A DNA stretch of 32,000 bases from Haloarcula halobia (GTDB lineage: Archaea > Halobacteriota > Halobacteria > Halobacteriales > Haloarculaceae): NCBI RefSeq assembly GCF_029338255.1, contig NZ_CP119787.1:2587631-2619630 (forward strand), written 5' to 3'. Both the position numbers and the translations under genes were made by a program. Shown one piece after another: positions 6,740 through 25,381 of this stretch. The notes beneath the pieces are model-generated. The model was not told the DNA's origin. It worked only from the letters and a program-made list of their open reading frames with translations, and did not search any database. Each line of letters begins with the position of its first letter. Within the stretch, counting starts at the first letter, position 1.

Positions 6740-7864
6740 TCACCGAGCTTCGCGCAACACCCACGGCTTCGCATCCGGGTCGTATTCGCTGATTTTCCCG
6801 CTGTGACTGCGTGTCTCCGCGGCAAGCACGCCGATGTGCTTGAGTTGCTGGACGAAATTGAACAGCACGTTCGTTCGAATAATGTCCTTCCAGACGGCCT
6901 CCTCCTCGTAGATGCGGGACACTTGCCCTGCCTCGATCAGTTCCCGGGCCCGTGTTCGGCCTGCCCGCGTGCAGAACGTGTTCAGGAAGACGTTCGGGTA
7001 CTCGTGAACCAACCGACGAACCAAGTCCGGGAAGTGGATCCGCGGCCCCTCTTTCCGCAACGCGTCAAGTAACAACCGGAACTCCGGGTGTCGCTCGTAG
7101 CAGTTCCGAAGCAGAATAGCGAGCGGCTGGTGCTCCGCGACGACCGTCGAACGGCCGACCTCATCTTTGACTGCATCGAGCTCCTGGAGTGTCGATATCC
7201 CGTATCCGCGAAGCACTGTCGCTGCAAGTTCCCCCTGGTCAGTTAGCGAGAACCGATCAGTACCCTCCAACAGTCCAAGTGACAGCGCACTCCGCCGGGC
7301 CTGGGTGCCCGCGCCGAAGCCGTACTCAGCTTCGATCACATCCGCTAATTCATCGCCAGCCAGCGGGCCCTGCTGATCGACCGCGACGACCGGCGCGAGA
7401 TAATTCAGCGGTTGGGCAAGCGAAAGACTCGCAATATCACCGGAAATGTCACTCCGGCGCAGTCGAACCGACAATTGCCCCTCAATATCAACGACCTGCT
7501 CGTGGGACTCCGAGGTCGGTGGACTCGACCATCGCGTCACCCCATCGTCCGTCGCACCGATCACGCCGACACCTTTCGACCGGAGCAAATCAGTATGTTG
7601 CCCGACCGTGTCGGCAGCCGCCGCAAGATAGGAGACGTGCGCCCCCTGCTGGTACGTGAGTGCCTGCCCGATCCCGCGGAGTAACCCGTTCGATCCCTTC
7701 ACCTCGACGGCGAACACGCGATCAGCATGCGTAAACCCAAGCACATCCGGATACCGCCCACCAATCGTGATCTGGTGGGTCTCGCAACGGTTCAAAACAT
7801 CCGCGTACGTATCTTGATGCCACCCGGGCACATGGACGAGTGGCTGGTAGTCGCGTGTTTCCAA
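6740..7864 (-). CDS. Protein with an N-terminal PD-(D/E)XK/Hjc-like motif; paralog of the 29822..31099 product
   Basis: A 374-aa ORF with a TTG start in the track, so the true start is uncertain. The motif GGRYPDVLGFTHADRVFAVEVKGS fits the PD...E-x-K pattern. The C-terminal blocks HFPDLVRRLVHEYPNVFLNTF and VLFNFVQQLKHIGVLAAE parallel TLPKLVQSMYDKRPAYTVELF and TVYQFKMMLRHSGILHSD in the 425-aa ORF. The gene lies 21 nt downstream of the nuclease-helicase gene on the same strand. Confidence 0.55.
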   Translation of the reverse strand: METRDYQPLVHVPGWHQDTYADVLNRCETHQITIGGRYPDVLGFTHADRVFAVEVKGSNGLLRGIGQALTYQQGAHVSYLAAAADTVGQHTDLLRSKGVGVIGATDDGVTRWSSPPTSESHEQVVDIEGQLSVRLRRSDISGDIASLSLAQPLNYLAPVVAVDQQGPLAGDELADVIEAEYGFGAGTQARRSALSLGLLEGTDRFSLTDQGELAATVLRGYGISTLQELDAVKDEVGRSTVVAEHQPLAILLRNCYERHPEFRLLLDALRKEGPRIHFPDLVRRLVHEYPNVFLNTFCTRAGRTRARELIEAGQVSRIYEEEAVWKDIIRTNVLFNFVQQLKHIGVLAAETRSHSGKISEYDPDAKPWVLREAR

Positions 7865-7885: not shown

Positions 7886-10800
7886 TCACAATATTTCTTC
7901 GAATTCGAATTCTGAGTCATATCCATCTCGAACAAACACATCGGGATCATCTGTCGGGCGTACGAACGTCTCCGCGATGATCTCCTCATACCTCCCAATA
8001 TCAATGACATCACCGAGATCAATGGCCTCTGAATGACCAAACCCACCCATATGCCCGTAGAAGTCGAGCCAAAGTGAGTGGTCGTCAAAGTCATCAGTAC
8101 TCTGGCTACTAGCTTGGAATAGTCCCTTCCCGCCAATAACAATCACTTTCCGCATCATTCGACTTGCTGCGACATTGAATCTGTTCGGGTCGAAAAGGAA
8201 GTCGGCCAGTCGATTGATGTAGCTTGGATCAGTACTTGTGGCCGCGACAATAATCAAATCCCTCTCGCGCCCTTGAAACTTCTCGACAGTATCGACCTTT
8301 ACCTCCTCAGGGACCTCATCAGAGGTGTTGAGTGCTTCTTTCTGCCGATTAAACGGTACAACAACCCCGACAGTAATTTCATTTTCCGGGTCCGTAGTGT
8401 CAGAGTGTTCGTCGACTACATCGTAATGAGAGACGATCTCCTCAATAAGCGACTGTTCGATCGGACTTCGCTTTTCGGCTGTTGAGTCCGTGTGTTCTAA
8501 TAATGATATGCGAGTCTCAGGTTCAAACACCGGCTCTAACGGCTCGGGTACGTCCCCCTGTGGAGTAGGGAATGGCGGGTGGTTGGCGCAACTGGTCAAC
8601 TCAATTCCGTCCTGCTGGTAGACGAGGTCTGTATGCATCTGTGCAGGCTCGTCGGGGAGTCGATATGTGTATGTGAGCTGGTGGAGCGGAATAGTGTCAT
8701 CTTCGTTCTCAAGGTCTGGCGGTTCTCGACGGATGTGTTCAAGGGTGTCTGGATCGATTTCTCCACGTAGGAAACGATGGAAGTTCAATGCCGATAGGAA
8801 GGGTGTGTTCAATTCGATTGGCCGCCGATCTTCTCTCTCCCATTCGTGTTGCTGGATCGGTTCCATCTGCCGATGGTCCCCTACTAATCCAATCTGACCG
8901 TCTTGGCGCAGGAAGGCTCCAACGAGGAGATACAACGGCAGATCCATCATACTGGCCTCGTCAACTAGGATCATATCTGCATACCTGGCATCACCGTTGC
9001 TCATAACCGTCTCCCCATCGCTATCTTCGGCGTACTCTGCCATCTTGTCGATAGCTCGATAGAGGGAGGCGGGTGTGCCAGCCATGATGAGTTGGTCTGT
9101 CTGCTCATCAGCCTCATCATTAATATAGGAGTCATACAGTTCCTCAAGCCGGTCGGCAGCATCGTCGTCACTGTAGTGGATATGTTCGACGGAATCTAGG
9201 TCAACGCCCTGTCCCTCACTAGAGCAAATCCGTACGATATCGAGATCATCAAACTCAGTATCGAGGTCGGCATGGAGTTCAGCTACACTCCGCAACGCTT
9301 CATCAACCGCATCGTGAGATAACGCCGAAATAAGACCAACAAACCGAGAATCCGACGTCTCGACAGTGGTAGCATGATGGACTCGACTAAGTAATGTCGG
9401 TGCAAGAGTGAATTTTGTTTTTCCCGTTCCAGGTGGACCCTGTAGAAGCATCACACCGCTGTTCGTGTCGGTTATAAACCCATGCTGATCTTCATTAGGC
9501 CCCGGCACAGCGCATTCCTCGTCGACATCAGCGTCGTCCTCTGAATCTGGATTATCGTCTAACTCACGAATGAGATCAATAAATGGTTCTAGAGCATCAG
9601 GGTCAGGGCCAGCGACTGAGAGGTCCTCCCGATCACCATTGAACACTTGAGCGAGCCGCTGATAGACGACGTTTTCATCGATGCGACCGGGTTCAAGGGC
9701 CGTCGCAGCACGAGATTGGGGAATCATATCTACACTGGGATCGAGCACATATTCGAGGGGATCGCCACTAAGCGACTCTTCTAAAGAAACGCCCCAATCG
9801 GAGGGATCATGATCGTCTGCAGTCATCCAGTCCTGGTGCTCGACACAATACATTTCGTCTGCAGTGTCACCTTGAGGCCAATCTCCGAGTACCGATCCTT
9901 CAATAGTCCCACTATCCAAATCGACGTCATCGACGATCGTCGTCGGATGGCGCTCGATGTATATTGGGTTATCCTGGTACACTTCTTCTGGTATCTCGCC
10001 AGTGTCGGTCAATTGGGTTAGCACGCACCACTCGTCAACCGAAAGCGGGTTCGGCGCGATACTGTCGTGGTGCTCTGGATCATACGGCTCACGGTTGTAG
10101 CGCAACAAGTCACCATCGATGTATGCATCATCGAAACCCGAGTCGTTTCTGTCGATTCGGGGCCGTGTATTCTCGAAAATAACGGCTTCGCCTGATGCAG
10201 CCCGTTCGATGAGTGGTTGCCGATAGTACGATTCTAACCGATTCTGTTCAGACCAGAACTCTAATTGCTGGTACTCACGAACCGCATCAGCCAACGAACG
10301 GGGCCGGAAGTGAATATCACGGAACGAGCCGGTTCGAAGTGGCTCCTTATCAACGAAAGCATCCTTGTTCCAAGTGCTCCGCTCGATATGGCGAATCGCG
10401 TACGAGAACTGCTGGGCAAGAAGCGTCACATCCTCTTCGGTGATGCGTTCAGAGTGGGTCGCAGAACGATAGAGGTAGTCTCGAACGAGATCAGGATCAT
10501 CGCTCACATCCGGATCTAACTCGTTATGAATTCCCCAGATATATTCTAAGGGTATCTGGTCAGCCTCACGGTTGGAAACTGGATACGCCCAACTCGCCAA
10601 ATTATGACTGTCTGGATCTACATTACGCGAGACCGCATGATCAAGTTCAATCCCGCCAGACGGGTTACCGTGACCTACGAGTCCATCGAAGAGCCCCCTC
10701 TCAAAGAGAGTGGTTAAATCGACTTCCTCACCATCCTCACGTGTTGCGATCCATTGGAACCAGCCACTGTCATCAGTCCACTGATCCGATGTGTTGCGCA

Positions 10801-12475
10801 TATACTGGGCAGTCGTTTGCAACAACCCCAATCCAGCAAAGCGGAAAGCGTACCGTTCCCGGAAGTCTTGCTGCAACACCGACACCATCTCTTGATCGAT
10901 TCCCGGCCGAAGCCCTAACAGCGTCCGGACAGCCTCTGAACCGTGAACATCGGGATGGCGACGCAATGCAGCAAGTAACGACTGGCGCTGGTGGTAACTA
11001 TAAAAATACAGGTGAGGGAACCCTTCTGATTCAGCTAAGCCTTCCGACCGCAAATCGGGTGCGACCTGAGCGATTGCCTCCCCAAGTTGTGCGAAAAATT
11101 CACGGAGAAGTTGTCGCTCCTGATAATCCTTGTCGTCAGGGTCGGTGTGGATGGCATCAATTATCTGGCTTACGTCTCTTCCTTCGTCGGACCTCGAATT
11201 CTCAACATAGGCATTCAGCAGCGTGACACGATCAAGCGCAGGGTCATGTTGAACAAAGAGATAAATCCGAATAAGCGCACCTGACGGATAGTCGGCCCCG
11301 CCCGGATAAGAGCGCCCATGCTCATCTCGCGGTAGGTTATACCCTGACCCTTGCAGGTGGTGCCCCCATAAGTCTGGGTCTGAACCATAGTCAGCGTCCA
11401 ATTCGGTCAGAAAATGATACGCGATCTGCGACCGCATCTGCAAATTAGTGAGGTCTGTTTGTTCCCGGACTGCCTCAACTAGCTCGTGATTTCGCGGAGT
11501 GAGTGCCCCCGCATCCGTGTGCGAGCTATCTGATCCCGGTTGGTCAAATAACAGTGCAAAATCTTCGAGGTCAGTAATCCCGCCATCTATCTCAATCCCT
11601 TCCAAAGCGTCCTGAGTACTGGGATCGAATCCAAGGAGTTCCAATCCTTTTGACTCAGCAGCACGCGTCATACAGACAGACTCATACTCACATCCCGAAC
11701 AACGCCGATCAATTCGATTCCGCGTCATATCGAACTCAGCGTCAAGTATCTGATCGAATTCATTCCCTGGACTAAGCTTCAATCTGAGTTTCCCCAGATA
11801 CCGGGAATAGTCGAAGTCTTCGACGCTACCCATCCCACCCCGGAAATCATTCTGCTGTGTAATGACCGTCGCAAAAATTCGATCGAGAGAGCACTCGACT
11901 CCTACGTCTGTCGCTACTTGGTTTACCAAACTCGCATATGCCGCTGCCTGATACGAATGAGGAACTTTCCGCTCGTCCGAGTTCTTCAACTCGGCGAGAA
12001 GGACTCGAATCGAATCCTGTTCTGCAGTCAGGAACACCAAGTCTGCAGTTCCAGAGACATCGTAGGCCCCGATCTCACCCGAAAGACTAGGTTGGTGGAC
12101 AACCATCACATCATCCTCAGGCCCGCGTGTCCCTGCCTCTCGAAGAAGGTCAGCTACGGCCGACTCGGGAATAGACCGGTCATCACCGATCGTCCGGTCG
12201 TATCCATCCCAATCACTCTCAGCAGGACCAATGAACTCGTACGTCGCCTCGTCTAAGGCGTCTAACTGCCGGTATTCGAAATCGACACCCTCTCCCATCA
12301 AAACAGGACTTTTTTCATCAGTATCCCACTGGCGGCTATGCAGTTCCACCTGCGCGTCGTCATCATACTTCCACGTCAAATACATCTGACAAGACTCTAC
12401 AGAGAAATACCGACCAATCGTACTCGGATTTAGTGTTGGGCGGGTAGTCGACATCTGCTCCTTCCATCGCACCAT
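7886..12475 (-). CDS. Dna2-like nuclease-helicase: N-terminal Cas4/RecB-type Fe-S nuclease plus C-terminal SF1 (Upf1/Dna2-like) helicase
   Basis: A 1529-aa ORF. In the N-terminus, ADLVFLTAE...LLAELKNS...HSYQAAAYA matches the D...E-x-K...Q-x-x-x-Y pattern. A Cys in ESCQMY plus CSGCEYESVC (C-x2-C-x5-C) matches the Cas4/AddB-type 4-Cys cluster pattern. The C-terminus has Walker A LLQGPPGTGKTKF (nt 9416..9439), Walker B ILVDEASMM, and the late helicase motifs TVEKFQGRERDLIIV and NVAASRMMRKVIVIG. About 750 aa between the two domains have no recognisable motifs. Confidence 0.8.
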   Translation of the reverse strand: MVRWKEQMSTTRPTLNPSTIGRYFSVESCQMYLTWKYDDDAQVELHSRQWDTDEKSPVLMGEGVDFEYRQLDALDEATYEFIGPAESDWDGYDRTIGDDRSIPESAVADLLREAGTRGPEDDVMVVHQPSLSGEIGAYDVSGTADLVFLTAEQDSIRVLLAELKNSDERKVPHSYQAAAYASLVNQVATDVGVECSLDRIFATVITQQNDFRGGMGSVEDFDYSRYLGKLRLKLSPGNEFDQILDAEFDMTRNRIDRRCSGCEYESVCMTRAAESKGLELLGFDPSTQDALEGIEIDGGITDLEDFALLFDQPGSDSSHTDAGALTPRNHELVEAVREQTDLTNLQMRSQIAYHFLTELDADYGSDPDLWGHHLQGSGYNLPRDEHGRSYPGGADYPSGALIRIYLFVQHDPALDRVTLLNAYVENSRSDEGRDVSQIIDAIHTDPDDKDYQERQLLREFFAQLGEAIAQVAPDLRSEGLAESEGFPHLYFYSYHQRQSLLAALRRHPDVHGSEAVRTLLGLRPGIDQEMVSVLQQDFRERYAFRFAGLGLLQTTAQYMRNTSDQWTDDSGWFQWIATREDGEEVDLTTLFERGLFDGLVGHGNPSGGIELDHAVSRNVDPDSHNLASWAYPVSNREADQIPLEYIWGIHNELDPDVSDDPDLVRDYLYRSATHSERITEEDVTLLAQQFSYAIRHIERSTWNKDAFVDKEPLRTGSFRDIHFRPRSLADAVREYQQLEFWSEQNRLESYYRQPLIERAASGEAVIFENTRPRIDRNDSGFDDAYIDGDLLRYNREPYDPEHHDSIAPNPLSVDEWCVLTQLTDTGEIPEEVYQDNPIYIERHPTTIVDDVDLDSGTIEGSVLGDWPQGDTADEMYCVEHQDWMTADDHDPSDWGVSLEESLSGDPLEYVLDPSVDMIPQSRAATALEPGRIDENVVYQRLAQVFNGDREDLSVAGPDPDALEPFIDLIRELDDNPDSEDDADVDEECAVPGPNEDQHGFITDTNSGVMLLQGPPGTGKTKFTLAPTLLSRVHHATTVETSDSRFVGLISALSHDAVDEALRSVAELHADLDTEFDDLDIVRICSSEGQGVDLDSVEHIHYSDDDAADRLEELYDSYINDEADEQTDQLIMAGTPASLYRAIDKMAEYAEDSDGETVMSNGDARYADMILVDEASMMDLPLYLLVGAFLRQDGQIGLVGDHRQMEPIQQHEWEREDRRPIELNTPFLSALNFHRFLRGEIDPDTLEHIRREPPDLENEDDTIPLHQLTYTYRLPDEPAQMHTDLVYQQDGIELTSCANHPPFPTPQGDVPEPLEPVFEPETRISLLEHTDSTAEKRSPIEQSLIEEIVSHYDVVDEHSDTTDPENEITVGVVVPFNRQKEALNTSDEVPEEVKVDTVEKFQGRERDLIIVAATSTDPSYINRLADFLFDPNRFNVAASRMMRKVIVIGGKGLFQASSQSTDDFDDHSLWLDFYGHMGGFGHSEAIDLGDVIDIGRYEEIIAETFVRPTDDPDVFVRDGYDSEFEFEEIL

Positions 12476-14758: not shown

Positions 14759-16660
14759 ATGTCGGCATTCAGGACTCTTGGAAAGGCTACATACGGCCGT
14801 CGAGGCGAAATAGACACGCCTGCCGGCCGTATCCAGACGCCCGAACTTCTGCCTGTGGTAAACCTAATCGGAGGAACGACAACAGAATCCGGTGGTATCT
14901 GGCGGTATACCCGTCGCCATCTCTTCGAGAGTGACAGCGTCCAGGGAATTATGTTTCAAGCGATGTCGTTTCTCGACTACAATCTCACCCCCGACAATTT
15001 GGAGGAGTGGCGTGAGAAGCCGCTCAAACAGCATTTCGAGGAGAGTGACGTTGAACCAGGGTTTGATCAACCGCTATTTATCGACTCGGGCGGATTTAAG
15101 CTGATGAACTCGACGAAGTTCGGACAGACGCCTGGCGAAGGCGGTAGTGAGAACGACTGGGATATTTACACGAATCCAGAGAGCATCTTGGACTTGCAGC
15201 TTGACTACGGCGCGGATATCATTGCCACGTTGGACTTTCCGATTCCACAGAACCTGAATAAGGAAGAAACCACTGAACGGATGGAGAAGAGTATCGATAA
15301 CGCGGTTGAGACTCTCCAGTTGCTCGACGAACGCGAACTGGAGGAGACGCCGTCGATGTATGTGGCCATACACGGCCACAACTACGAGGATGTCAACTGG
15401 TATGTCAGTCAATTTCTGGACCGCGCCGATGAACTTGATGAAGCCTTCGAGGGGTTCGCACTCGGTTCGCTCGTCCCTCTCAGTAGCTCCCCTGACACCT
15501 TGGTCGATATCGTCCAAGGGGCAAGAGACGCGATACCCGAGGACCGTTACGACGAAATCGCATTCCACGTCTTCGGCATAAGCGGAAGGCTGTGTCCTCT
15601 ACTATCTCTCCTCGGGGTAGATACGTTCGATTCGAGAAGCTATCAGTACGCAGCCCGGAACAAGAAATTCATCCACCCAGACACCTGGCAACGGATTAGC
15701 CTGGATCAGATTGATGACTGGGATGACTGGCCCTGTGACTGCCAGGCCTGTCAGAACATCCACTTAGACGATATGCGACACGCCCTGCTGGAATCCGAGG
15801 TCAGTAACAAGCCCATCGAAGGTGAACACGGGACTCATTTCAAGAGCGAATACTACGCGCAGATAGCTCATCATAACTTCGAGCTGTACAGCCGCCAGAT
15901 GCAACAAGTTCGTAACGCCATTGACGAGGGGCGTTTACTCGAACGTGTTGCCAACTTCGCTCAGGGAAAGAATATCGTAGAGAAGGGGTTGAAGCGGGCT
16001 CAACTACACAATCCTGAACTCCGTGAACAGCTTGCAGACATTGGTTATGAAGGGTTAGTTGCTGGACCGGATGACGAGACGTTCCAGACCAAGCTATCTA
16101 GCTTCCTCGAAGGGGTCGAGGACACGACACGCAAGAAACGGACCATATCGTTGAAGCACGGGCCAAATGACTTTGACATCCTCCAACGCAACGATTATCA
16201 GCCGCCGAGCGAGGCAGACGTACTGCTGATTCTACCCTGTAGCCAGGAGAAGCCGTATTCGGAATCACGGACACATCAGGCTGTCCTCTCCCGTCTTGAG
16301 GACTACCGTGAGCGATATCATAAGGTGTCCATCTCAGGGCTATACGGGCCGGTACCTGAGGACTTCGAGGAGGCCGACCCGGTGATGAGCTACGAATATG
16401 TATTGACGACTGCCGATGACGACCAAGTTGAACTTGTTGCGAACCGACTTGCTCGTTACCTGAACCGGTACGGTGAGCAATTTGACCAAATTATAGCCTA
16501 CACCACGAACAAAGCCTACCGACGTGCTATCGATACGGCATTCAACCGGTATGGCCGCGGTGAAATATACCCATCTGACCCGCGAGCTCTTCAGCTGACC
16601 GAGCATTTCCGTAATGAAAATATCGACGAGCTCGTTGGCCGATTTGCCAGTTCACAGTAA
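14759..16660 (+). CDS. TGT-family protein fused to an ArcS-type (archaeosine synthase-like) C-terminal domain; no PUA domain evident
   Basis: The N-terminal IQTPELLPVVN, FIDSGGFKL, FHVFGISGRLCPLLSLLGVDTFDS and the Zn motif CDCQAC are tRNA-guanine transglycosylase hallmarks. The C-terminal LPCSQEKPYSESRTHQ (nt 16235..16276) matches the ArcS motif PC-x3-KPY-x2-S-x2-H exactly. The protein ends about 15 aa after that domain. I place the start at ATG 14759; the track begins at TTG 14756. Confidence 0.75.
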   Translation: MSAFRTLGKATYGRRGEIDTPAGRIQTPELLPVVNLIGGTTTESGGIWRYTRRHLFESDSVQGIMFQAMSFLDYNLTPDNLEEWREKPLKQHFEESDVEPGFDQPLFIDSGGFKLMNSTKFGQTPGEGGSENDWDIYTNPESILDLQLDYGADIIATLDFPIPQNLNKEETTERMEKSIDNAVETLQLLDERELEETPSMYVAIHGHNYEDVNWYVSQFLDRADELDEAFEGFALGSLVPLSSSPDTLVDIVQGARDAIPEDRYDEIAFHVFGISGRLCPLLSLLGVDTFDSRSYQYAARNKKFIHPDTWQRISLDQIDDWDDWPCDCQACQNIHLDDMRHALLESEVSNKPIEGEHGTHFKSEYYAQIAHHNFELYSRQMQQVRNAIDEGRLLERVANFAQGKNIVEKGLKRAQLHNPELREQLADIGYEGLVAGPDDETFQTKLSSFLEGVEDTTRKKRTISLKHGPNDFDILQRNDYQPPSEADVLLILPCSQEKPYSESRTHQAVLSRLEDYRERYHKVSISGLYGPVPEDFEEADPVMSYEYVLTTADDDQVELVANRLARYLNRYGEQFDQIIAYTTNKAYRRAIDTAFNRYGRGEIYPSDPRALQLTEHFRNENIDELVGRFASSQ

Positions 16661-16719
16661 TACGTAACCAACCATCCTGCAGACGTCTAGTGGTTATCCC
16701 CAAGAACTAAGGTCTCCTC

Positions 16720-17199
16720 ATGCGATCAGCAGAGTATATGACGTCGTTATTAGTCCAATCGTGTTCTGCAACGAAGGAACAGGTGGATACACCGGTTCCT
16801 GCTCTTGATTTGTACGATGGATACTTCTTCAGGATCATAAAGAAGGCATTGCGCACGGGTCGATTTCAGTCTGGAATTGACATTATGATTATATCTGCGG
16901 AGCACGGAGTTGTAGAACCTGATCAGGAAATCGAATATTATGACCGGCGGATGGACACAGAACGTGCTGACAAACTGAATGACCAAGTCGTCAGCGCTAT
17001 TGCCAGCAAAGTCACTACTAACGGGTATGACAAGGTATGGATCAATCTTGGAAAGGACTATCTTCCCGCTATCGATGGGGTTGAATCTGCCGTTGATGTA
17101 CCCGTTGACTATATCGAAGGCACCGGTATCGGAATGAAGGGAAAGCGGCTGAAGCACCTGGTTTCCAGTGGCCGTTCTATCCCGACGCACGGTGACTGA
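16720..17199 (+). CDS. Stand-alone domain related to the ArcS-type/DUF328-like domain of the upstream ORF
   Basis: A 159-aa ORF. LLVQSCSATKE parallels LLILPCSQEKP in the upstream ORF. IMIISAEHGVVEPDQEIEYYDRRM parallels KVSISGLYGPVPEDFEEADPVMSYEYVL, and also the SGLYGVLRPLD...YRLEM block as I recall it from YaaA/DUF328 proteins. The KPY and S-x2-H parts of the ArcS motif are absent. Confidence 0.5.
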   Translation: MRSAEYMTSLLVQSCSATKEQVDTPVPALDLYDGYFFRIIKKALRTGRFQSGIDIMIISAEHGVVEPDQEIEYYDRRMDTERADKLNDQVVSAIASKVTTNGYDKVWINLGKDYLPAIDGVESAVDVPVDYIEGTGIGMKGKRLKHLVSSGRSIPTHGD

Positions 17200-17203
17200 C
17201 ACT

Positions 17204-18451
17204 ATGGTTTCGTTTGATATTGTTGCAGAGGCGGGCGAGGCAAGACGTGGACAGCTCCGAATAAATGACCGGACTTTAGAGACTCCTCACCTATTCCCCG
17301 TCATCAACTTCTACGGCGGTGGTAATGAGGGTGCTCTGTTCGGTGGCGGCGTTCACCGCACGGTCAAGGAATTCCTAACTCACGATAACGAAATCACTGG
17401 TGGTGAAGACTATAGTGACCTTTTCCGCGGTGTGATGACGTCGATCTCCTCGCTGGCCGACTATGGCATTCGAGAGAAGAAACTGGACTGGTATCTCGGC
17501 AATGAAATCCGCGAGTGGGATTGTTTCAGCGACTATAATGGGATGATCTTCGCAGACTCCGGCGGCTACAAAATCCTGAAGCAGGGCGGTCTAGAAGGTC
17601 AGGACTTTGAGAAGGACATCGACCAGGATAAGGCGCTAGATATACAGCTGGCTCTTGGACCAGACATCGTGGTCAATCTGGACCACCCGATCCATCCGGA
17701 TGACGAGTTCGAGGAGCGGATCGAAAAGATGGAGCAGACAGCTGCCAACGCTGCTCGGTTCGCAGAGCGTCGTGACGAGGTTGACGGGGCCTGCTACCTC
17801 ACGGTGCATGGCTATTATGAAGCGATGCTCGAACGATCCTTCGACCTCATCGAGGACGAACTCTCAGAACCAATCCCCGAAGCGTTCGATGGGATTGCGT
17901 TGGGTAGCCTCGTCCCGCGAAAAGACAACGTCGAGATTCTCGTCGAAGCAGTATCTGATTGTAAACGGGAGATGCAACAGCGAGGTTACGAAGACCTCCC
18001 TCTACACGTATTAGGAATCTCGGGGAACGCAATGCCGCTACTCGTTGCTGTCGGGGCCGATACCTTCGATTCTGCCTCCTACCTACACCAAGCGATCAAC
18101 GGGAAGTATTGCGTCAACCTGTTCGAGACTGTTCCGATTGATGAAGCTAACTTCGACTCCTGTGAATGCCGCGTCTGTAACGACGACTTCCACCGAGCAC
18201 GTATGCGGAACGAGATGGAGGACCTGTATCAGAAGGATATCCTCGGCTCGGTGGCAGCGCATAATCTCGCGGTTCAGCAACGGGAGCTTCGCAAGTTTCG
18301 CCAATTGATCGCTGAGGGAGACAAAGAACGGGTTGCTGAGTATTTGGAGGAGGCAGTGAAGGATCAGAAAGGCTTCCGGAAGTTCGCCTACCAGCTAATT
18401 AACGAACGAATTAACCCATACTTCGAGGAAATAGACACAACCTATGCATAA
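17204..18451 (+). CDS. Second TGT-family paralog (DpdA-like candidate DNA transglycosylase)
   Basis: Contains LETPHLFPVINFYGG, FADSGGYKIL, LHVLGISGNAMPLLVAVGADTFDSASY and the Zn motif CECRVC. It is a single TGT domain of about 415 aa with no PUA or C-terminal extension. I choose ATG 17204, 5 nt after the upstream stop; the track starts at GTG 17168. Confidence 0.75.
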   Translation: MVSFDIVAEAGEARRGQLRINDRTLETPHLFPVINFYGGGNEGALFGGGVHRTVKEFLTHDNEITGGEDYSDLFRGVMTSISSLADYGIREKKLDWYLGNEIREWDCFSDYNGMIFADSGGYKILKQGGLEGQDFEKDIDQDKALDIQLALGPDIVVNLDHPIHPDDEFEERIEKMEQTAANAARFAERRDEVDGACYLTVHGYYEAMLERSFDLIEDELSEPIPEAFDGIALGSLVPRKDNVEILVEAVSDCKREMQQRGYEDLPLHVLGISGNAMPLLVAVGADTFDSASYLHQAINGKYCVNLFETVPIDEANFDSCECRVCNDDFHRARMRNEMEDLYQKDILGSVAAHNLAVQQRELRKFRQLIAEGDKERVAEYLEEAVKDQKGFRKFAYQLINERINPYFEEIDTTYA

Positions 18452-19979
18452 GACACCACAAGTCAACGAGGTCAACGAGTTCATCGAGATAGCTAGCGAC
18501 TTTGAAGATCCGTTAGAGGTCATTAGGGAAGCTCTGTCAAATTCCTACGATGCGAACGCAACGCAGGTCGACATCAATATTGAACAAGATGACGAGGGGC
18601 GGAACACCTTGGTCATCAAGGACAACGGCCACGGGATGGACGAAGATGACCTCTCGTCGTTCTTCGACCTCGGGAACTCGAACAAAAATGACGCTATCGG
18701 GTACAAAGGCCACGGCACCAAGATCTACTACAAGAGCGATAAGGTCCGTGTCGAGACCGTCAAGGACGGGACGCGGATCGAATCGGTGATGAACCAGCCG
18801 TGGGCGAAGCTGAACAACCGCGAACTCCCCACGTACTCCATCGACACGACAGACGTCGACGAGCCATCACGTACCCGGATCGAGGTACACGGTTTCCGTG
18901 CTGGCCAGGGGTTCGACCCAAAACAGCTCACCTACAACAAGATTGAGCATTATATCAAGTGGAAAACGATCGGCGGGTCGACGGCGTGGTACTTCAACGA
19001 CGACTTCCACGAGATGGAGATCAAAGTTGAGCTTTCACCCTCGATTGACGACACGCAGGATCCGATAGAGACCGATAACCGGTTGAAATTCCCGGCTGAA
19101 AACCTGGATCCGGACGGTGAGTTCGTGGCTGAAGAGATGTGTAAGCACTACCCACCACAGGAACTGACCGTCACGCTCGATGACAGCCGTGAATTGACGG
19201 TTGAGGTCGTCGGGATGGTCGGTGGTAAGGAAGCTCGGAACAAGCTGCCGACCTATGGGAAGCATTCCGCCCAATTCGGTATCTGGCTGGCGAAGGATCA
19301 CATCAAGGTCGAACGGTACAACGATGCTATCGGTGCGGACAACGAGTTCTTCCACTTCTTCTTCATCGCTAACTGCCAGGGTCTCGAACTCTCCGCGAAT
19401 CGAGAAAAGATCCGGAACAAATCCGGCGATGTCTACCAGGCCATCACGGACGAACTCGACCGGTTTATGACCAAAGTATGCCAAGATTCCTGGTACCAGA
19501 ACTATATCGAACGCCGCAAGCTGGAGGACAAGAAACGCAGCATCCAATCGCAGGAAAGTACGCTCGAAGAACGTCTCCAGCGGACCAGGGATGAAGGTGG
19601 ACTCTCACCATCAAATCCTGCGGAGGTCATTGCCGCCCTGGAACGATACAGTGCAAATGGAGCGCCGGAGACCGTCCGGATCGCAGACTTCCAAATGGAT
19701 GATGAAGTGAACGCGATCCTTGAGACCGACAACGGTTTCGAGAACGCTGCCCTCCACGTCAAGCTGAGTGATTTCTTCGAGGAAGAAGCTGCACTGTCAC
19801 ACATCGACCGGCTCATCTGCTGGAAACTCGGTGACTTAGATGCACTCACAAAGATTGAACGCTCCTCATACCTCGGAGAACCTATCCGGTTCGACTTCCA
19901 GAGCAGGGAGGTCCATTACGGCGGGGACACGAAGCGGACGATCCCAATCTTGGAGTTAGCCGATAGCGTCTCTTCGTAG
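18444..19979 (+). CDS. GHKL (Bergerat-fold, HATPase_c/MORC-Hsp90-like) ATPase
   Basis: Has the N-box IREALSNSYDANA, the G1 box VIKDNGHGMDEDDL and the G2 box IGYKGHGTKIYY in the first 100 aa. Its start overlaps the stop of the upstream TGT gene by 8 nt (ATGCATAA). Confidence 0.75.
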   Translation: MHKTPQVNEVNEFIEIASDFEDPLEVIREALSNSYDANATQVDINIEQDDEGRNTLVIKDNGHGMDEDDLSSFFDLGNSNKNDAIGYKGHGTKIYYKSDKVRVETVKDGTRIESVMNQPWAKLNNRELPTYSIDTTDVDEPSRTRIEVHGFRAGQGFDPKQLTYNKIEHYIKWKTIGGSTAWYFNDDFHEMEIKVELSPSIDDTQDPIETDNRLKFPAENLDPDGEFVAEEMCKHYPPQELTVTLDDSRELTVEVVGMVGGKEARNKLPTYGKHSAQFGIWLAKDHIKVERYNDAIGADNEFFHFFFIANCQGLELSANREKIRNKSGDVYQAITDELDRFMTKVCQDSWYQNYIERRKLEDKKRSIQSQESTLEERLQRTRDEGGLSPSNPAEVIAALERYSANGAPETVRIADFQMDDEVNAILETDNGFENAALHVKLSDFFEEEAALSHIDRLICWKLGDLDALTKIERSSYLGEPIRFDFQSREVHYGGDTKRTIPILELADSVSS

Positions 19980-19987: not shown

Positions 19988-21220
19988 TTAGAGGAACTCC
20001 TCAAGTTTGGCGCTGTCGCCAGCATGCCAGCTTCTTCGGGGCCGGATCTTCACAGGGACCATTTCCTCGCTGCTGTCGTTCATGACGTATGCGTAGCCGG
20101 GGTCTTTCGGGATGTTCTCCATATAGTGGCCAAGGGCATTCGTGTCGTGCAGTTCAGACACTTTGTCGCCAACCGCATCGGAGTCCTGTCCGGCTGTCAG
20201 CCGATGGATCACGACCGTGTCACACTGCGATAGAATCCTGCTGTCTAATGCGCCCGGCTGCTGGGTTGCCATGACGACTGAAAGACCTGGCCGCCGTCCC
20301 TGCCGAACCCACTCTACAAGCGGCTCTGTACTTGGGACAGTCTGACCCGATGGTGCGAACAGGTGTGCCTCATCGAGGAACAGCCAGACAAGGGGGAAAT
20401 CAATCTCTGAGTCGGCACCTCGAATCCGGGCAACTTCCTCACGGCTGCGCTCGAAGCTCCGCTCATTATATGCTTTCCGAGCAAGGATCCCAGTCAACAG
20501 AGTCCGCAGGTTCCACGGTAATGCACCCGCGCCACTCAGATCGAGGACAACGAATTCGCCTCCTTTCACGATCTCGTCGATAGTGTTACCCGTGGAACTG
20601 AAGACACCCCACGAATCAGCCTTCTCCAACCGTCGGAGCAGAGCCTCCTTGATGTTGGCACTCTCCTCAGACCGTTCGACGCGTTCGATAACGTCGTGAA
20701 GGCCGTAGTACTGCCCGAATTCCTCTTCGACTTCCTCAATAACTTGAGCTAATAATCCGGCCTGCGCTTGCGTCTCATCGATATCCAGCACATAGAACCA
20801 GTCGTCCAAGGTGAGTTCCGAGGGGTAGAGCTCGAACCCCTCGTGGAAATACTCACTCACATCCTCGTAGCGTTCCTCCAGTCCCGCTGGATAATACACG
20901 GTGATAGGGTACTCTTCAGGCGTCAAATCCCAGTCGCTCAACGCATCCTTGGACTGAGTCTCAACCTGCAAACTCCAATAGATCCCCATCGCATCGACCA
21001 CTAGACCCGACAGGTTGTCCTGCACCATCCTTGGCAGCGACATCAATTCCTCCATGAATACCCCGAGTGTGTGGGACTTGCCGGAGCCCCGCTTCCCACA
21101 CACGGTTACCATATGCGGGTTATTCAGGTCAATATGGACATCCTCCCGCAACTCGCCTTGAGATGAGAACTTCCGGCCGATGTATCCGGCCAGTTGCTCG
21201 TTATCGCCACCGATGATCAT
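19988..21220 (-). CDS. HerA/FtsK-like (DUF87-type) P-loop ATPase
   Basis: Has Walker A HMVTVCGKRGSGKSHTLG, Walker B VWLFLDEAHLFAP, and RQGRRPGLSVVMATQQPGALDSRILSQCDTVVIHRL, typical of HerA/VirB4-like ATPases. Its start overlaps the upstream stop (ATGA at 21217..21220). Confidence 0.75.
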   Translation of the reverse strand: MIIGGDNEQLAGYIGRKFSSQGELREDVHIDLNNPHMVTVCGKRGSGKSHTLGVFMEELMSLPRMVQDNLSGLVVDAMGIYWSLQVETQSKDALSDWDLTPEEYPITVYYPAGLEERYEDVSEYFHEGFELYPSELTLDDWFYVLDIDETQAQAGLLAQVIEEVEEEFGQYYGLHDVIERVERSEESANIKEALLRRLEKADSWGVFSSTGNTIDEIVKGGEFVVLDLSGAGALPWNLRTLLTGILARKAYNERSFERSREEVARIRGADSEIDFPLVWLFLDEAHLFAPSGQTVPSTEPLVEWVRQGRRPGLSVVMATQQPGALDSRILSQCDTVVIHRLTAGQDSDAVGDKVSELHDTNALGHYMENIPKDPGYAYVMNDSSEEMVPVKIRPRRSWHAGDSAKLEEFL

Positions 21221-24200
21221 TCTTCTTCACCTAGTTCACTTCGGACGCGTTGCTTAATTAGGGTTCGACGAAGGGACTGGATATCATCGTCCTCCCCGTT
21301 CAGGGCGTTAATGACCTGTTCAAAGTCCGAATCCGACAGCGCCATCAAGGAATCGTCAACATCCACTTCCTCCGTCTCAAGGATCGTATCGGGTGATTCT
21401 GATGCCCCATACCTGTCGAGCACCTCCGAGATCTCGTCCTCGTCGTAAGCCTCCTCTTCGATATGCTGCTTGATCTGGTTCCTCCACCTGTCCCACGGAT
21501 TCTTAAACTGGTCGTAGTCGAAGTCAGTAGCTGATTCGTCGAGGGCGTCCTCGCAGCTATCTAGCACCCGGTCACCTTGCCCAGACCACGAACTCCCCTC
21601 AGGAAGCCGGTCCTCCTGATTCTCCAAGTACTCGCGTTCCTCCTCTACCTGTTCCTCAAGCTCTTCGATTTCGTCCCCGATCTCCCCAATGAGGAACTCC
21701 TTATCAGACTCCAGATCCGCAACGTCATCGTCCGCCTCATAGTCTTCAACGTCAGGTATGATCTGTCGTCGATGCCGTTCGAGTTCAGATACAGTCGGGT
21801 CCAGATCCCGCCCATCATCACTGAATTCGGACAGCACGTCGCCAATTGACAGATCTTCGATTAAGTCTTCGACAGTGGTTCGGTCATAGTGGTCGTTGAC
21901 CGTCGAGACAACAGAGACATCGATATCATCGAGGTTCAGATCAGGATCGGTGCCCTTCAGTGAGGTGTAAGTCGATTCTAATTCCTCGACATCGTTCATC
22001 AACTCGTATACATCCTCAGCCGCTTCCAACTGCTCGACCAACTGCTCGACAGCCGGTGTAATCAGGAACAATACCTCGGTTTCCAGTTGTCCAAGGGGAC
22101 GCAACTCCGCGATATAGTTGGGAACTTTGGTGCCGCTGAAAGCAGGACTGCTTCCCAGAGTCCTGAGCCGCTGGTCGAGATTGCCATGTTCTACGGAGAG
22201 GTCCGTATCGCAGCGTTCTTCTAAGTCATCAAGCCGGCCAGCTGCTGGGATATCATCGACGTCTGTGTAGGCCTCGCGGAGTGATGCAAGCTCGTCAGTA
22301 TCAATGTCCTCTCCGCGGGCGCTCTTCAGCACCTGCTTCTCAACCGTTTTGCGGAGATTATCCTGGATCGTTTCCCATCTTGCTTCTTGATCGCTTTCAA
22401 CGCCGATGATCGTCTCGGTATCGTCGAGAATCCACTCCTCGGTGTAGTCCCCAATGACGAACAGGAGGAATATGAGTGCCCGAGTAACGCTGTCGATCTC
22501 CGTCGTCCCGAAAATGAGGTCATACACCTCGTCTTCGGTGACCTCATCATCCTCCAGCATTTCTTTCAAGTCGTCTATATTACTCTGGAAGTTGGCTGTA
22601 TAGTTATCAGTGATATCGCCATCATTCACGAAGGACTCGTTCTCCTCAAAGTCCTCAAGAGTATCACGGAGGTCATCACCAAACATCGGATCAAAGCTCA
22701 AATACGGATAATTAGGCATTATGGCCTCAGGGATGTCTGGGTCAGTGAATTCGAGCGAGTCCTCGTACTTCAGATGCTGCACAGCATAGGCGAGATTCAT
22801 TGCTTCCTTCCCGTTGTAGGTGCCGTCGTACCCCAACCGGTTGAGAACATAATCAGATCTGTATATCCCGGATAGACCGTCATTCAGGTTTACCGGCGAG
22901 AAGAGGTAGTTGGTTTGGGTAAGCATCCGGAGCTGGCCGTCAGGGAGCCGTTCCTCGCCTGGATTTTCTTCCTCAAGACCTCGGATCAGACAGAGTTTCG
23001 TCCAGAGCAGGTACCGGTCGAATTCAGACGAACTGGGGTACTCCGAACGAAGCGTTGAGAGTACCTCTTCGGTTTGATCCCGTTCCGTCTGATCATGCCG
23101 AATATCCGGGTTCAGGTCATTTTCTAGGTCCTCAGCAAGGTCTTCAGCTCGTTCATAGCGTTCAGATACCTCATACAGTGCAGCGACATCGTCGTCCTCG
23201 TCGGCCTCTGTGAGGCAGACGATGAACTCAAGGGCAGTTGGCGGGTCATCCGATGAATCGATCTGCAGTTCCTCCGGTGTCTCCTTGAAGCACAAATAGA
23301 CCTTGTCCGTGTAGCTCAGCTGGCCATCGACATCGAATTCGATGTAGCTTGAGCTATCCGCATCAAACGGGATGTCGAAGACTGTTCGGGCGTCATACCA
23401 TTCCCGATAGAGCTGAATCGGGCTGGTACTTCGCAAATCTTCATCAGTGATGACGTCGTTGATTTCTTCGGAGAGATTGACCTCGGAGTCTGGAGCAGCT
23501 TCTGCCGTTAGTTCACCTGAGTCAAATATCAGGCTACCGTCATCATCAATATCGAAGTAATCGGTTCTCGTGCTTGCGGTGTCGATCAGGTGAGTTAATT
23601 CCTCGTCACTGATGTCTATCGTATACTGGTCTGCGAGGTTTCCCAGCTGTTCGGAACTGTAGAGAGCGGGATTTTGACTCCGGTACAGAATTCCGTCTTC
23701 AGCTACCGCAAAAAGTAGCCGTTGTTGCGTGTATGTACAGTCATCAAAGTCTCCCTCAATACGCTCCTCAATGCTATCTCGTCCCGGGAGGTCATCGAGG
23801 TTCCCGCGATCCAACTCTCCCAGTTCATCACGCACCTCGTCGCCATACCGATACAGCATGTCGAGGTCGATAATACCGTCCTGATCCCATCGCTTGAAAT
23901 ACTCGTTCGCAATCAGTTTGAAGTCCCGGAATCCCCGAACAACGCGGTCTCCGCCTTCCTCCCTGTACCCCTCTGTGATCGATAAAGCGAAATTCAGGAA
24001 ATCCTCAGTGAAGGGATACACATAGGTCTCGTCATCGTCTGCATTCAGACGGGTTTCCCAGTCGTCCTTATCATAGTCTTGGAGCAGTGGAAGGGCGTAG
24101 CGGCGATATAGGTCGGCAAAGAGTTCCTTGCTCTCCTCCCGAGACAGGTCAATATTATACGCAATACTCTCTCTAACTCGATCGGTCAGGTCACTTCTTG

Positions 24201-25059
24201 CGTTCAGGATTTCCGGCCAGTCTTGGAGTGGGAGCGTATTTGCAATGAGAAGATATGGTGGATCCTCAACGTCTTCGAACCCCACCACGGACTTCCGAAT
24301 CATTTTGCGCACAATCGCCCGGAGTTTCAGTTCTTCATCAGTCACCGGCCCGATATCGAATGCCTGCTCAAACTCATCCAGGCAGATAACCGGATATCGG
24401 CCTGTCTCCTCTTTATAAAGCCGAGTGAACCACGTAAGTGTCTCGTGGATATCTCCTGTAGTCAGCTCCTTCACAATCATTGCGACATCAGCAACCGTTG
24501 AAGGATCGTCAAACACCTCCTCCAGGCGATCCTGCTGTGAGGACGGCAACGCCTGAAGATCGCTCACCGTGAGATTCGCCTTCTTCTGTTGGAACTCATC
24601 AACTAGGTCACCTTCGGACAGCCCATCAGCAGGGGACACCAGTCCCTCAAAAACCCGTCCGAGCATCCGATTCGGGCTGTCACAGTCCTCAAGGCTAACC
24701 TCAACTGGATCAATAGGAGTCTCTCCATAGGTGAATTGATCATATTCCACCTGTTCACCATCCTTCGTAAATTCCTTCGATTGGCTGCACAGGTCAACCA
24801 GATTGTTCATCAGCACCGTCTTGCCGGAACCGTATGCTCCGTGCAGGACAACCCCCGGACTCTGTTTATCGGAAAGGCCAGAGTGGATCCCCCGGATGAT
24901 AGCATCCCGCTTGTCGGTGAGGATAAAACCAGAGTCTGACTCGATAAAGTCCCGGAAATTAGGATGTTCGTCCGTAGCAAGGGTTTCGCAATCTCGCTCG
25001 AATCCCTTGATGGTCTGTGCCTCAAGGAGCGTGACGATGTGCGTTTGTGCTTGATCCAT
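21217..25059 (-). CDS. Large P-loop NTPase, BrxC/PglY-like (DUF499-like) candidate
   Basis: A 1280-aa ORF with an N-terminal Walker A VVLHGAYGSGKTVLMNNL (about nt 24818..24846) and Walker B PVICLDEFEQ. A very long acidic C-terminal region has no other motifs. The size, N-terminal P-loop and linkage to a PglZ gene resemble BrxC/PglY. This is not verified by a profile search. Confidence 0.5.
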   Translation of the reverse strand: MDQAQTHIVTLLEAQTIKGFERDCETLATDEHPNFRDFIESDSGFILTDKRDAIIRGIHSGLSDKQSPGVVLHGAYGSGKTVLMNNLVDLCSQSKEFTKDGEQVEYDQFTYGETPIDPVEVSLEDCDSPNRMLGRVFEGLVSPADGLSEGDLVDEFQQKKANLTVSDLQALPSSQQDRLEEVFDDPSTVADVAMIVKELTTGDIHETLTWFTRLYKEETGRYPVICLDEFEQAFDIGPVTDEELKLRAIVRKMIRKSVVGFEDVEDPPYLLIANTLPLQDWPEILNARSDLTDRVRESIAYNIDLSREESKELFADLYRRYALPLLQDYDKDDWETRLNADDDETYVYPFTEDFLNFALSITEGYREEGGDRVVRGFRDFKLIANEYFKRWDQDGIIDLDMLYRYGDEVRDELGELDRGNLDDLPGRDSIEERIEGDFDDCTYTQQRLLFAVAEDGILYRSQNPALYSSEQLGNLADQYTIDISDEELTHLIDTASTRTDYFDIDDDGSLIFDSGELTAEAAPDSEVNLSEEINDVITDEDLRSTSPIQLYREWYDARTVFDIPFDADSSSYIEFDVDGQLSYTDKVYLCFKETPEELQIDSSDDPPTALEFIVCLTEADEDDDVAALYEVSERYERAEDLAEDLENDLNPDIRHDQTERDQTEEVLSTLRSEYPSSSEFDRYLLWTKLCLIRGLEEENPGEERLPDGQLRMLTQTNYLFSPVNLNDGLSGIYRSDYVLNRLGYDGTYNGKEAMNLAYAVQHLKYEDSLEFTDPDIPEAIMPNYPYLSFDPMFGDDLRDTLEDFEENESFVNDGDITDNYTANFQSNIDDLKEMLEDDEVTEDEVYDLIFGTTEIDSVTRALIFLLFVIGDYTEEWILDDTETIIGVESDQEARWETIQDNLRKTVEKQVLKSARGEDIDTDELASLREAYTDVDDIPAAGRLDDLEERCDTDLSVEHGNLDQRLRTLGSSPAFSGTKVPNYIAELRPLGQLETEVLFLITPAVEQLVEQLEAAEDVYELMNDVEELESTYTSLKGTDPDLNLDDIDVSVVSTVNDHYDRTTVEDLIEDLSIGDVLSEFSDDGRDLDPTVSELERHRRQIIPDVEDYEADDDVADLESDKEFLIGEIGDEIEELEEQVEEEREYLENQEDRLPEGSSWSGQGDRVLDSCEDALDESATDFDYDQFKNPWDRWRNQIKQHIEEEAYDEDEISEVLDRYGASESPDTILETEEVDVDDSLMALSDSDFEQVINALNGEDDDIQSLRRTLIKQRVRSELGEEE

Positions 25060-25066
25060 AGTATCT

Positions 25067-25381
25067 TTATGTAGAAGGGCGGACTCGGAAGCGCATTAGT
25101 CCGGATTTGATGTATGATTCCTCGGGGACAACATAAACACGGCGACCAGCGACGTGCTCTTTAAGTGGACGTGTCATCAGGACGATTTTATCTCCCTCCC
25201 CATCATCTTCATCATCTGGACCGACGAACGCGATATCGAAGTCGCCGGAGAGACGGAACTGGAGCTCGTAGACGAATTCGAATACAGATCCCTGGGCAGC
25301 TTTGGCGTCCCCTGCTGTTACGATAACGAGTCTATTCCAGGGTTTGTTCAACTCGTCCATTACGGGTGCTACAAGCGCCAT
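25067..25381 (-). CDS. Hypothetical small protein (104 aa)
   Basis: The ORF sits 7 nt upstream of the BrxC-like start and 6 nt downstream of the preceding stop. It has acidic composition and no recognisable motif. Confidence 0.5.
   Translation of the reverse strand: MALVAPVMDELNKPWNRLVIVTAGDAKAAQGSVFEFVYELQFRLSGDFDIAFVGPDDEDDGEGDKIVLMTRPLKEHVAGRRVYVVPEESYIKSGLMRFRVRPST

Follow-up and report, generated by a model that had tools for sequence, protein, structure and literature searches.

A PUA-less TGT-DUF5591 fusion and a second TGT in a mobile defense island of Haloarcula halobia, probable writers of a 7-deazaguanine mark in DNA

The window analyzed here is a 32,000-nucleotide stretch of the Haloarcula halobia genome (contig NZ_CP119787.1, positions 2,587,631 to 2,619,630 of the forward strand), with an acidic proteome and a G+C content of 47-59%. 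Near its center are four consecutive open reading frames (ORFs), ORF1 to ORF4, beside the preQ0 synthesis genes queD, queE, and queC, which are divergent from ORF1. The original prediction, made from the letters alone, singled out ORF1 and ORF3 as two TGT paralogs that modify DNA beyond preQ0, one inserting preQ0 and the other, fused to an ArcS-like domain, derivatizing it. We argue that the four ORFs and the que genes together are probably the writer half of a DNA-marking defense island, in which the two paralogs probably do not divide the work in that way. The features on which the argument turns are the following, with positions numbered from the start of the window.

ORF1, 14759..16660, plus strand (ATG at 14759 or TTG at 14756): a PUA-less TGT-DUF5591 (ArcS-C1) fusion of 633-634 amino acids (aa).
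Parts of ORF1, plus strand: the TGT domain at ~14795-15964, DUF5591 at ~16190-16567, and catalytic Asp codons at 15083 (D110) and 15629 (D292).
ArcS signature within ORF1, 16235..16276, plus strand: PCSQEKPYSESRTH in translation, that is PC-x3-KPY-x2-S-x2-H.
ORF2, 16720..17199, plus strand: a 159-aa DUF6884 protein with CSxxK and SAxxG motifs, with a predicted ArcS-C1-like fold and weakly DpdC-like.
ORF3, 17204..18451, plus strand (ATG at 17204, alternative GTG at 17168): a second PUA-less TGT of 415-427 aa.
ORF4, 18444..19979, plus strand: a GHKL (MutL/MORC-type) ATPase, its start overlapping the stop codon of ORF3.
queD, 14148-14615, minus strand: Pfam PTPS, E = 1.5e-18.
queE, 13361-14176, minus strand: Pfam Radical_SAM, E = 6e-16.
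queC, 12638-13351, minus strand: Pfam QueC, E = 5e-73.

Pfam and translation agree that ORF1 and ORF3 are TGT-domain proteins with the DSGG, G-x-DTFDS, and CxCxxC blocks, just where they had been placed. The Pfam match of ORF1 to TGT spans residues 14-403 (E = 7.5e-31) with the hallmarks FIDSGGFKL, GVDTFDS, and CDCQAC, and is followed by DUF5591 at residues 479-604 (E = 1.6e-19). The ArcS signature had been called perfect, and it is an exact one. A PUA domain, which had been thought to be missing, is not found by the Pfam scan of ORF1, nor is TGT_C or C2, and there are only 140 residues from the motif Cys to the C-terminus. The AlphaFold2 model of ORF1 has 1iq8 as its top Protein Data Bank (PDB) match. 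The C-terminal domain matches the AF0587 chain (2q07) at the sequence level, and STSV1/2 proteins at ~25% identity (E = 3e-4).

A search of 1.84 billion representative proteins returned 725 matches, from which 55 long two-domain representatives plus ORF1 make a fusion-family set of 56 at <=50% identity. TGT is present in 54/56, DUF5591 in 54/56, and PUA in 0/56. Across these representatives, the ArcS motif keeps K/R in all 56, P and Y in 55 each, Cys and S in 52 each, and H in 36, and because it is kept in this manner the motif in ORF1 is, as judged by conservation, not a chance match. One other representative from the same search (P0345, 418 aa) has an N-terminal TnpB-like segment joined to a DUF5591/ArcS-like C-terminal part, and could be either a true fusion or an artefact of gene calling.

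Against the NCBIfam models, ORF1 scores 127 bits to ArcS (NF040592), which has a cut-off of 440, 68 bits to NF053620 (cut-off 600), and 115 bits to TgtA (TIGR00432, cut-off 350); it has no match to the NCBIfam DpdA equivalog, and none to PADLOC DpdA. Ten lower-ranked proteins, sampled from the 150 best representatives, all fall far below the canonical ArcS and TgtA cut-offs as well, therefore ORF1 appears to lie outside the housekeeping clades. The identity of a housekeeping haloarchaeal ArcS was considered for ORF1 and rejected on the scores, the missing domains, and the mobility and bacterial homologues described below.

ORF3 matches Pfam TGT with E = 1e-30 and has the hallmarks FADSGGYKIL, GADTFDS, and CECRVC. 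It scores 124.5 bits to TgtA (cut-off 350), 26.8 bits to DpdA (cut-off 200), and 24 bits to PADLOC DpdA. The best curated family for both TGT domains is archaeal TgtA, yet far below cut-off, and by these scores both belong to the TGT superfamily outside every curated equivalog. None of the locus proteins retrieved reaches the DpdA equivalog cut-off, and tblastn of ORF3 against 50,697 phage records gives no match at E = 1e-3 or better and so no sign of a link to viral DpdA1-4.

Alignment to the P. horikoshii ArcTGT 1IQ8 finds that both paralogs keep the equivalents of Asp95, Asp130, and Asp249 and the Cys-x-Cys-x2-Cys...His zinc site. The active-site equivalents in ORF1 are D110, D160, D292, and H206-G207, and the same set is present in ORF3, where the catalytic pair is D118/D289. 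Catalytic and zinc residues are invariant in the ORF3 family and kept in 54-56/56 of the fusion representatives. In both paralogs, the Gln-Gly and Gly-Gly of ArcTGT and bacterial TGT are replaced by His-Gly and Gly-Ser, a signature common to TGTs linked to HerA in Methanofastidiosa and to another haloarchaeal plasmid TGT. The active site of Salmonella DpdA has Asp95/Asp130/Asp256 and His181-Gly182 (PMC10164549), therefore the active-site His of ORF1 and ORF3 is apparently shared with the sole biochemically proven cellular DNA transglycosylase, a correspondence drawn through the ArcTGT and bacterial TGT alignments and not from a direct DpdA alignment.

The N-terminal domain of ORF1 and ORF3 align by hhalign with E = 4e-58 at 30% identity and have a common N-terminal Gly-rich insertion. 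By sequence comparison, the two TGT domains are paralogous and are each other's closest relatives. A neighbor-joining tree of TGT domains, which was built without DpdA sequences, agrees with their sisterhood in a suggestive way only, with bootstrap values of 27% for the ORF1 family and 46% for ORF1 and ORF3 as sisters.

The two-gene view of the original prediction passed over ORF2 and ORF4, which belong to the same conserved module. ORF2 matches Pfam DUF6884 (E = 1.6e-14) and PADLOC PDC-M57A (4e-11), with weak matches to PADLOC DpdC (1.3e-4 and 2e-4), and some close homologues have a precomputed PF03883 match. Its family has an invariant Cys15-Ser16-x2-Lys19 and an S-A-x-x-G motif. The AlphaFold2 model of ORF2, with a predicted local distance difference test (pLDDT) score of 86.8, has a sole significant PDB fold match, scoring E = 3.8e-5 with probability 1.00 against 2q07 (AF0587), a stand-alone DUF5591/ArcS-C1 protein. 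The secondary-structure order of the ORF2 model is that of residues 480-634 in the ORF1 model. Aligning DUF5591 to DUF6884 by hhalign brings the Cys-x3-Lys and S-[GA]-x-x-G motifs into register with a probability of 5% and E = 0.008, and because that probability is so low we base the relationship on the 2q07 fold match. As modeled, ORF2 is a second ArcS-C1-like unit, and the locus would therefore consist of two pairs of a TGT with a Cys-x3-Lys domain, the one fused as ORF1 and the other split as ORF2 then ORF3. DUF6884 proteins also match phrog_5935 (7e-15) and phrog_5436 (1e-9), PHROG families with no function assigned, therefore relatives of the C1-like domain seem to circulate in viruses too.

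ORF4 matches Pfam HATPase_c_3 (9e-16), and its PDB sequence matches are the N-terminal ATPase domains of MutL and MORC2. We propose it as a functional analogue of DpdB, the ATPase that DpdA needs for inserting preQ0 into DNA, after which DpdC independently converts dPreQ0 to dADG (PMC10164549).

To survey the loci, one genome per species was scanned with an alignment of ORF1 relatives, giving 74 loci. Homologues of the whole quartet, ORF1 to ORF4, are found in 29 of the 33 haloarchaeal loci. ORF2, ORF3, and ORF4 are contiguous in 29/29 of these quartet loci, often with overlapping stop and start codons, and ORF1 lies before, after, or opposite them. The quartet adjoins queCDE in 12 of the 29 loci, as it does in L080. 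Copies of ORF1 from Haloarcula, Halorussus, and Halorubrum share 97% identity, and the module is plasmid-borne in Halorubrum xinjiangense, Natrinema, and Haladaptatus. This pattern of synteny, high identity, and plasmid carriage fits a horizontally moving accessory element, and not a housekeeping tRNA enzyme. The plasmid of Haladaptatus sp. YSMS36 (L076, 14001-29989) has two TGT-DUF5591 genes (673 and 654 aa) with the ORF2-3-4 trio, and also a 1493-aa AAA helicase, a DpdK-like PLD protein (PADLOC 3.8e-11), and a DEAD/DEAH helicase.

Full-length ORF1 homologues with 34-37% identity occur in Cyanobacteria, Chloroflexota, and Poribacteria, and we know of no archaeosine in bacteria. The bacterial fusion is found without ORF2-4, adjoining DpdJ-like helicases (E = 1e-62 and 5e-58), an HKD (PLD)-SNF2 helicase, or a GmrSD_N protein with HEPN, and some haloarchaea likewise have the fusion without a second TGT. 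In three loci from Nostoc and Microseira, the fusion is followed by a GmrSD_N/NsnA-like protein (PADLOC NsnA 1e-60) and a RiboL-PSP/MAE_28990 HEPN protein, which pairs a putative writer with a protein of a modification-dependent-nuclease family.

The remaining genes around the quartet in the window are listed here.

6740..7864, minus strand: a 374-aa protein with an N-terminal PD..(D/E)xK-like motif, GRYPDVLGF..VFAVEVKG (motif only).
7886..12475, minus strand: a 1529-aa nuclease-helicase, PD-(D/E)XK plus superfamily 1 helicase (Pfam AAA_11, AAA_12, PDDEXK_1).
19988-21220, minus strand: a HerA-like ATPase (Pfam DUF87 3e-12; PADLOC mad8/HerA).
21217-25059, minus strand: a 1280-aa P-loop protein, with weak AAA matches only.
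25067-25381, minus strand: a 104-aa ORF.
25388-26197, minus strand: a 269-aa protein resembling winged helix-turn-helix (wHTH) proteins.
26194-28992, minus strand: a 932-aa alkaline-phosphatase-fold, weakly PglZ-like protein (Pfam Phosphodiest 4.8e-8, PglZ 0.095).
29822..31099, minus strand: a 425-aa paralogue of the 6740..7864 protein with a PD..(D/E)xK-like motif, GYPDMVFAG..VIAVEAKG (motif only).

The genes from HerA to the phosphatase-fold protein (19988..28992, minus strand) are one operon, convergent with the quartet. Homologues of its phosphatase-fold, P-loop, and HerA-type members stand beside the quartet in varying combinations in L005, L029, L031, and L080. The nuclease-helicase has its best PADLOC match to MkoA (3e-31) and a further one to DpdJ (3e-12), and with homologues beside the module in L008, L029, L076, and L079 it is a candidate restriction component. 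Haloarchaeal loci also have DpdJ-matching DEAD/MZB helicases and a DpdK-like PLD protein (PADLOC 4e-11), and a further DpdJ match among related loci stands at 9e-28, besides the two bacterial matches given above. The 374-aa and 425-aa paralogues are ~23% identical and have no Pfam or PHROG match, even at E = 5. Homologues of the former adjoin the quartet in three loci and those of the latter lie directly beside ORF1 in six, so that at least 9 other haloarchaeal loci have one directly beside the quartet; from this placement and their motifs we regard the pair as candidate nuclease partners of the module. On the annotations obtained, the neighbors of the module vary and are always of the defense type. 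A tRNA gene at the island border is not found in the window.

At the left end of the window (278-6521, plus strand), there is a PDDEXK_4 nuclease-family protein at 278-1558, a 572-aa SbcC-like coiled-coil protein at 4308-6026 (plus strand; phrog_77, 2e-17), and several ORFs without matches, possibly another defense cluster.

Four known systems bear on what the module does. The island would operate like a Dpd system, in part resembles BRC, and falls outside DpdA, DpdB, canonical ArcS, and ArcTGT. The Dpd system of Salmonella Montevideo, with DpdA/B/C as writers and DpdD-K for restriction, has the same Asp/Asp/Asp plus His TGT site and CxCxxC..H zinc site. In both, the TGT is linked to preQ0 genes and to an ATPase that looks like an obligatory partner, and a separate protein, putative in the island, converts the nitrile; the DpdJ- and DpdK-like neighbors here and in related loci may correspond to the restriction genes. 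Unlike it, the island has two TGT paralogs instead of one, scoring at most 27 bits against the DpdA cut-off of 200; its ATPase is GHKL (MutL/MORC-type), with no ParB-like gene in the window scan; its nitrile parts are DUF5591/ArcS-C1 and DUF6884, with no clear DUF328 DpdC; and the host is archaeal.

The second comparison is to phages in which a stand-alone DUF5591 protein accompanies a DNA transglycosylase, Vibrio phage nt-1 and Sulfolobus virus STSV2. In nt-1, DpdA2 puts dPreQ0 in place, and when the stand-alone DUF5591 protein of the phage (ArcS2) is expressed along with it, dG+ forms in plasmid DNA (PMC10516641). A PUA-less DUF5591 core is common to these phages and the island, whereas in the island it is fused to the TGT and joined by an extra diverged C1-like protein, ORF3 has no detectable similarity to phage DpdA, and the setting is a cellular defense island as opposed to a viral anti-restriction device.

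Canonical ArcS and ArcTGT share with ORF1 the order of a TGT-like N-terminal domain and then a C1 domain, the exact motif, and the closest structures (1IQ8, 2q07), in contrast to which the island proteins lack C2 and PUA, score below the equivalog cut-offs, have His in place of the base-binding Gln, come with no RaSEA gene in the island, and have a mobile, patchy, cross-domain distribution. The T. kodakarensis ArcS takes a bare preQ0 nucleotide and not the free base, does not need the L-shape of tRNA, forms a lysine adduct no longer exchangeable by ArcTGT, and is inactive without RaSEA; that of M. jannaschii works with ammonium, Asn, or Gln (PMC11298593).

BRC (BREX-related capture) systems, described in 2026, contain HerA, PglZ, and a BrxC-like protein, to which some loci add a TGT; they have no reported counterparts of DpdB/DpdC, and only dPreQ0 is expected from them (PMC12839542). 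In the island, PUA-less TGT stands together with an ATPase of the HerA/FtsK type, a large P-loop protein, and a protein of phosphatase fold that is weakly PglZ-like, and the HerA/P-loop/phosphatase-fold operon looks like the BRC-type "capture" arm. It differs from BRC in adding two C1-like domains, a second TGT, a GHKL ATPase, and queCDE. GNAT, present in a subset of BRC loci, has no match in the scanned window ORFs, and DUF6079, DUF4007, and STAND NTPase are undetected by Pfam in the island, the 104-aa and 269-aa ORFs having no DUF4007 or STAND match.

Two other archaeal groups have TGTs of the His type in comparable surroundings. Eleven loci from Methanofastidiosa and related metagenome-assembled genomes encode a 346-aa PUA-less His-type TGT divergent from a HerA with 32% identity to that of the window, and these are probably the TGT-bearing BRC type of PMC12839542. 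The Haloarcula sinaiiensis plasmid pHsi139 (~875-13061) has a different haloarchaeal TGT defense cluster, in which a 344-aa His-type TGT is accompanied by queD and queE, a protein annotated as "BREX system ATP-binding", an EVE-domain protein, a large PD-(D/E)XK nuclease, and a regulator of the wHTH kind. Short TGTs like this one are on 9 haloarchaeal plasmids in all, pHsi139 included.

With the domain identities, intact active sites, paralogy, synteny, mobility, and defense neighborhood described above, we read the region 12638-19979 as the writer half of a horizontally mobile, Dpd-like/BRC-like DNA-marking defense island, in which preQ0 is put into DNA and its nitrile is derivatized, and we would give this a probability of roughly two in three. 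The core of the original prediction is backed by the mobile quartet near queCDE, the defense neighbors (DpdJ-/DpdK-like, HerA, GmrSD), the bacterial homologues, the DpdA-type His, and the sub-cut-off scores. What stands is a nonhousekeeping system of the island that takes preQ0 and modifies further, probably on DNA. The division into a paralog that inserts and a fusion that only derivatizes has to be given up, since both TGTs keep full catalytic and zinc sites, since the fusion occurs without a second TGT in bacteria and some haloarchaea, and since the module also has a second ArcS-C1-like protein (ORF2) and an ATPase (ORF4).

In the mechanism that we propose, the products of queD, queE, and queC would supply preQ0, and the N-terminal domain of ORF1 and ORF3 would swap guanine for it in double-stranded DNA by TGT double-displacement chemistry, with D110/D292 of ORF1, D118/D289 of ORF3, and the Zn site. 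The ORF4 GHKL ATPase may provide ATP-dependent DNA handling, as the ParB-like DpdB does in bacteria. The two ArcS-C1-type Cys-x3-Lys domains, fused in ORF1 and free-standing as ORF2, would act on the nitrile of the DNA-borne preQ0 to give an amidine or amide derivative, namely dG+, dADG, or an amino-acid adduct. If preQ0-Lys in tRNA is a guide, the transglycosylase could no longer reverse the mark once it is derivatized. Because the island has no RaSEA, an amino-acid adduct, dG+ made directly from ammonia/glutamine, and dADG are all possible. Distinguishing self from foreign DNA by this mark would then fall to the nuclease-helicase, the PD-(D/E)xK-motif proteins, and the HerA/P-loop/phosphatase-fold operon. 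That the fusion stands alone in bacteria suggests that it can both insert and derivatize preQ0 there, and in haloarchaea the ORF2-4 trio may add a second writer that differs in specificity or product, or may provide a heterodimer partner for ORF1.

Several points weigh against this reading. We infer DNA, and not tRNA, as the substrate. The absence of PUA is by itself weak evidence and compatible with tRNA, for ArcTGT can reportedly do without PUA, to judge by the title of Sabina & Soll 2006. A RaSEA-like gene is not found in the island by the Pfam scan of window ORFs, and RaSEA is what the T. kodakarensis ArcS needs. queE had been named as the only radical-SAM gene of the island, and so it is, being the sole Radical_SAM match among the scanned window ORFs, which were nearly all of the non-nested ORFs of >=100 aa; loci L078-L080 likewise have none besides QueE. 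The ORF2 match to DpdC is at E ~1e-4, the DUF5591-DUF6884 sequence homology found by hhalign is weak, the model confidence for ORF1 is moderate (pLDDT 68.6), and the sisterhood of the TGT domains has low bootstrap support.

Four rival explanations are possible, and each fits the context less well than a DNA-writing module. Two of them, both quite unlikely in our estimation, survive best. The first is that the module modifies RNA as an accessory archaeosine-type pathway, serving extra tRNA positions or protecting tRNA from viral nucleases, with the TGTs inserting preQ0 and the C1-like domains finishing G+. The flanking genes are hard to square with it, being nucleases, helicases, HerA, and DpdJ/DpdK-like genes and not translation genes, and so is the constant linkage to a MutL/MORC-type DNA ATPase. 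A mobile, plasmid-borne module that is also in bacteria without G+, a fusion family that is without C2 and PUA throughout, and a DpdA-type His instead of the Gln of tRNA TGTs add to the difficulty. An RNA pathway would account for TgtA being the best curated family for both TGTs, for ArcTGT being the closest structure, and for the exact ArcS motif of ORF1, and it would be eased by the reported dispensability of PUA and by the independence of ArcS from the tRNA L-shape (PMC11298593).

The second, to which we give the same low standing, is that only dPreQ0 is written, and that DUF5591 and DUF6884 are noncatalytic DNA-binding or base-flipping readers or targeting modules of the YaaA kind. Pfam curators do relate DUF6884 to the DNA-binding YaaA, and YfjM has been modeled as flipping a base (PMC11701544); a stop at dPreQ0 is what the BRC paper expected (PMC12839542), and the lack of a RaSEA partner in the island agrees with it. 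A reader would not be expected to hold on to C15, S16, and K19 as invariantly as the ORF2 family does, in the manner of an active site, nor to keep the Cys, Lys, Pro-Tyr, and Ser of the ArcS motif in 52-56/56 diverse fusion representatives, and the stand-alone DUF5591 of nt-1 does turn preQ0 in DNA into dG+ (PMC10516641).

Less likely again is an anti-viral eraser or effector, whose TGTs would attack invader DNA by exchanging or excising haloviral 7-deazaguanines, or by flooding it with a toxic base, with no self labeling. In its favor, haloviruses such as HVTV-1 carry dPreQ1 and DpdA4 (PMC10516641), the TGT exchange is reversible for preQ0 (PMC11298593), and the GmrSD-type neighbors in Nostoc come from a modification-dependent-nuclease family. 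The tight queCDE linkage argues that the module consumes preQ0, its architecture parallels that of the DpdABC writers, and ORF3 has no viral DpdA similarity at the threshold given above. That the cluster serves secondary metabolism, making a 7-deazapurine nucleoside or base in free form, is very improbable, for although queCDE clusters feed 7-deazapurine natural products too, a TGT/DpdA-type enzyme is taken as a sign of nucleic-acid modification (both bioRxiv 10.64898/2026.04.15.718813), ArcS is inactive on the free preQ0 base (PMC11298593), and two polymer-acting transglycosylases, a DNA-type GHKL ATPase, and nuclease/helicase neighbors are unlike a biosynthetic cluster.

Returning to the module as a writer of DNA marks, there is a bolder extension, on which the odds lean the other way and which we offer as tentative. 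Cellular genomes might carry a 7-deazaguanine mark beyond dPreQ0 and dADG, either dG+ or an unseen lysine-type adduct, in haloarchaea first and, through the stand-alone fusion, in some cyanobacteria and Chloroflexota. The haloarchaeal version might then be a dual writer, with its two TGT/C1-like pairs making two marks of different chemistry or serving two sequence contexts, and with a MORC/MutL-type ATPase clamp for loading.

To our knowledge, within the searchable literature, DNA with 7-deazaguanines is on record from bacterial Dpd islands, as dPreQ0 and dADG, and from viruses, with eight derivatives that include dG+. In that literature, our searches turned up neither the quartet nor a PUA-less TGT-DUF5591 fusion, and no 7-deazaguanine modification in the DNA of archaeal cells. 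The module is compact, with four genes plus queCDE, and it is present in cultivable strains and on plasmids, therefore the prediction is directly testable. If it is true, this would be the first chromosomal or plasmid-borne archaeal system for marking DNA with 7-deazaguanines. The catalytic core of ArcS would have been recruited repeatedly from tRNA to DNA chemistry, including as a TGT fusion that has spread into bacteria, and BRC/BREX-like systems would gain a concrete and chemically richer self-marking arm.

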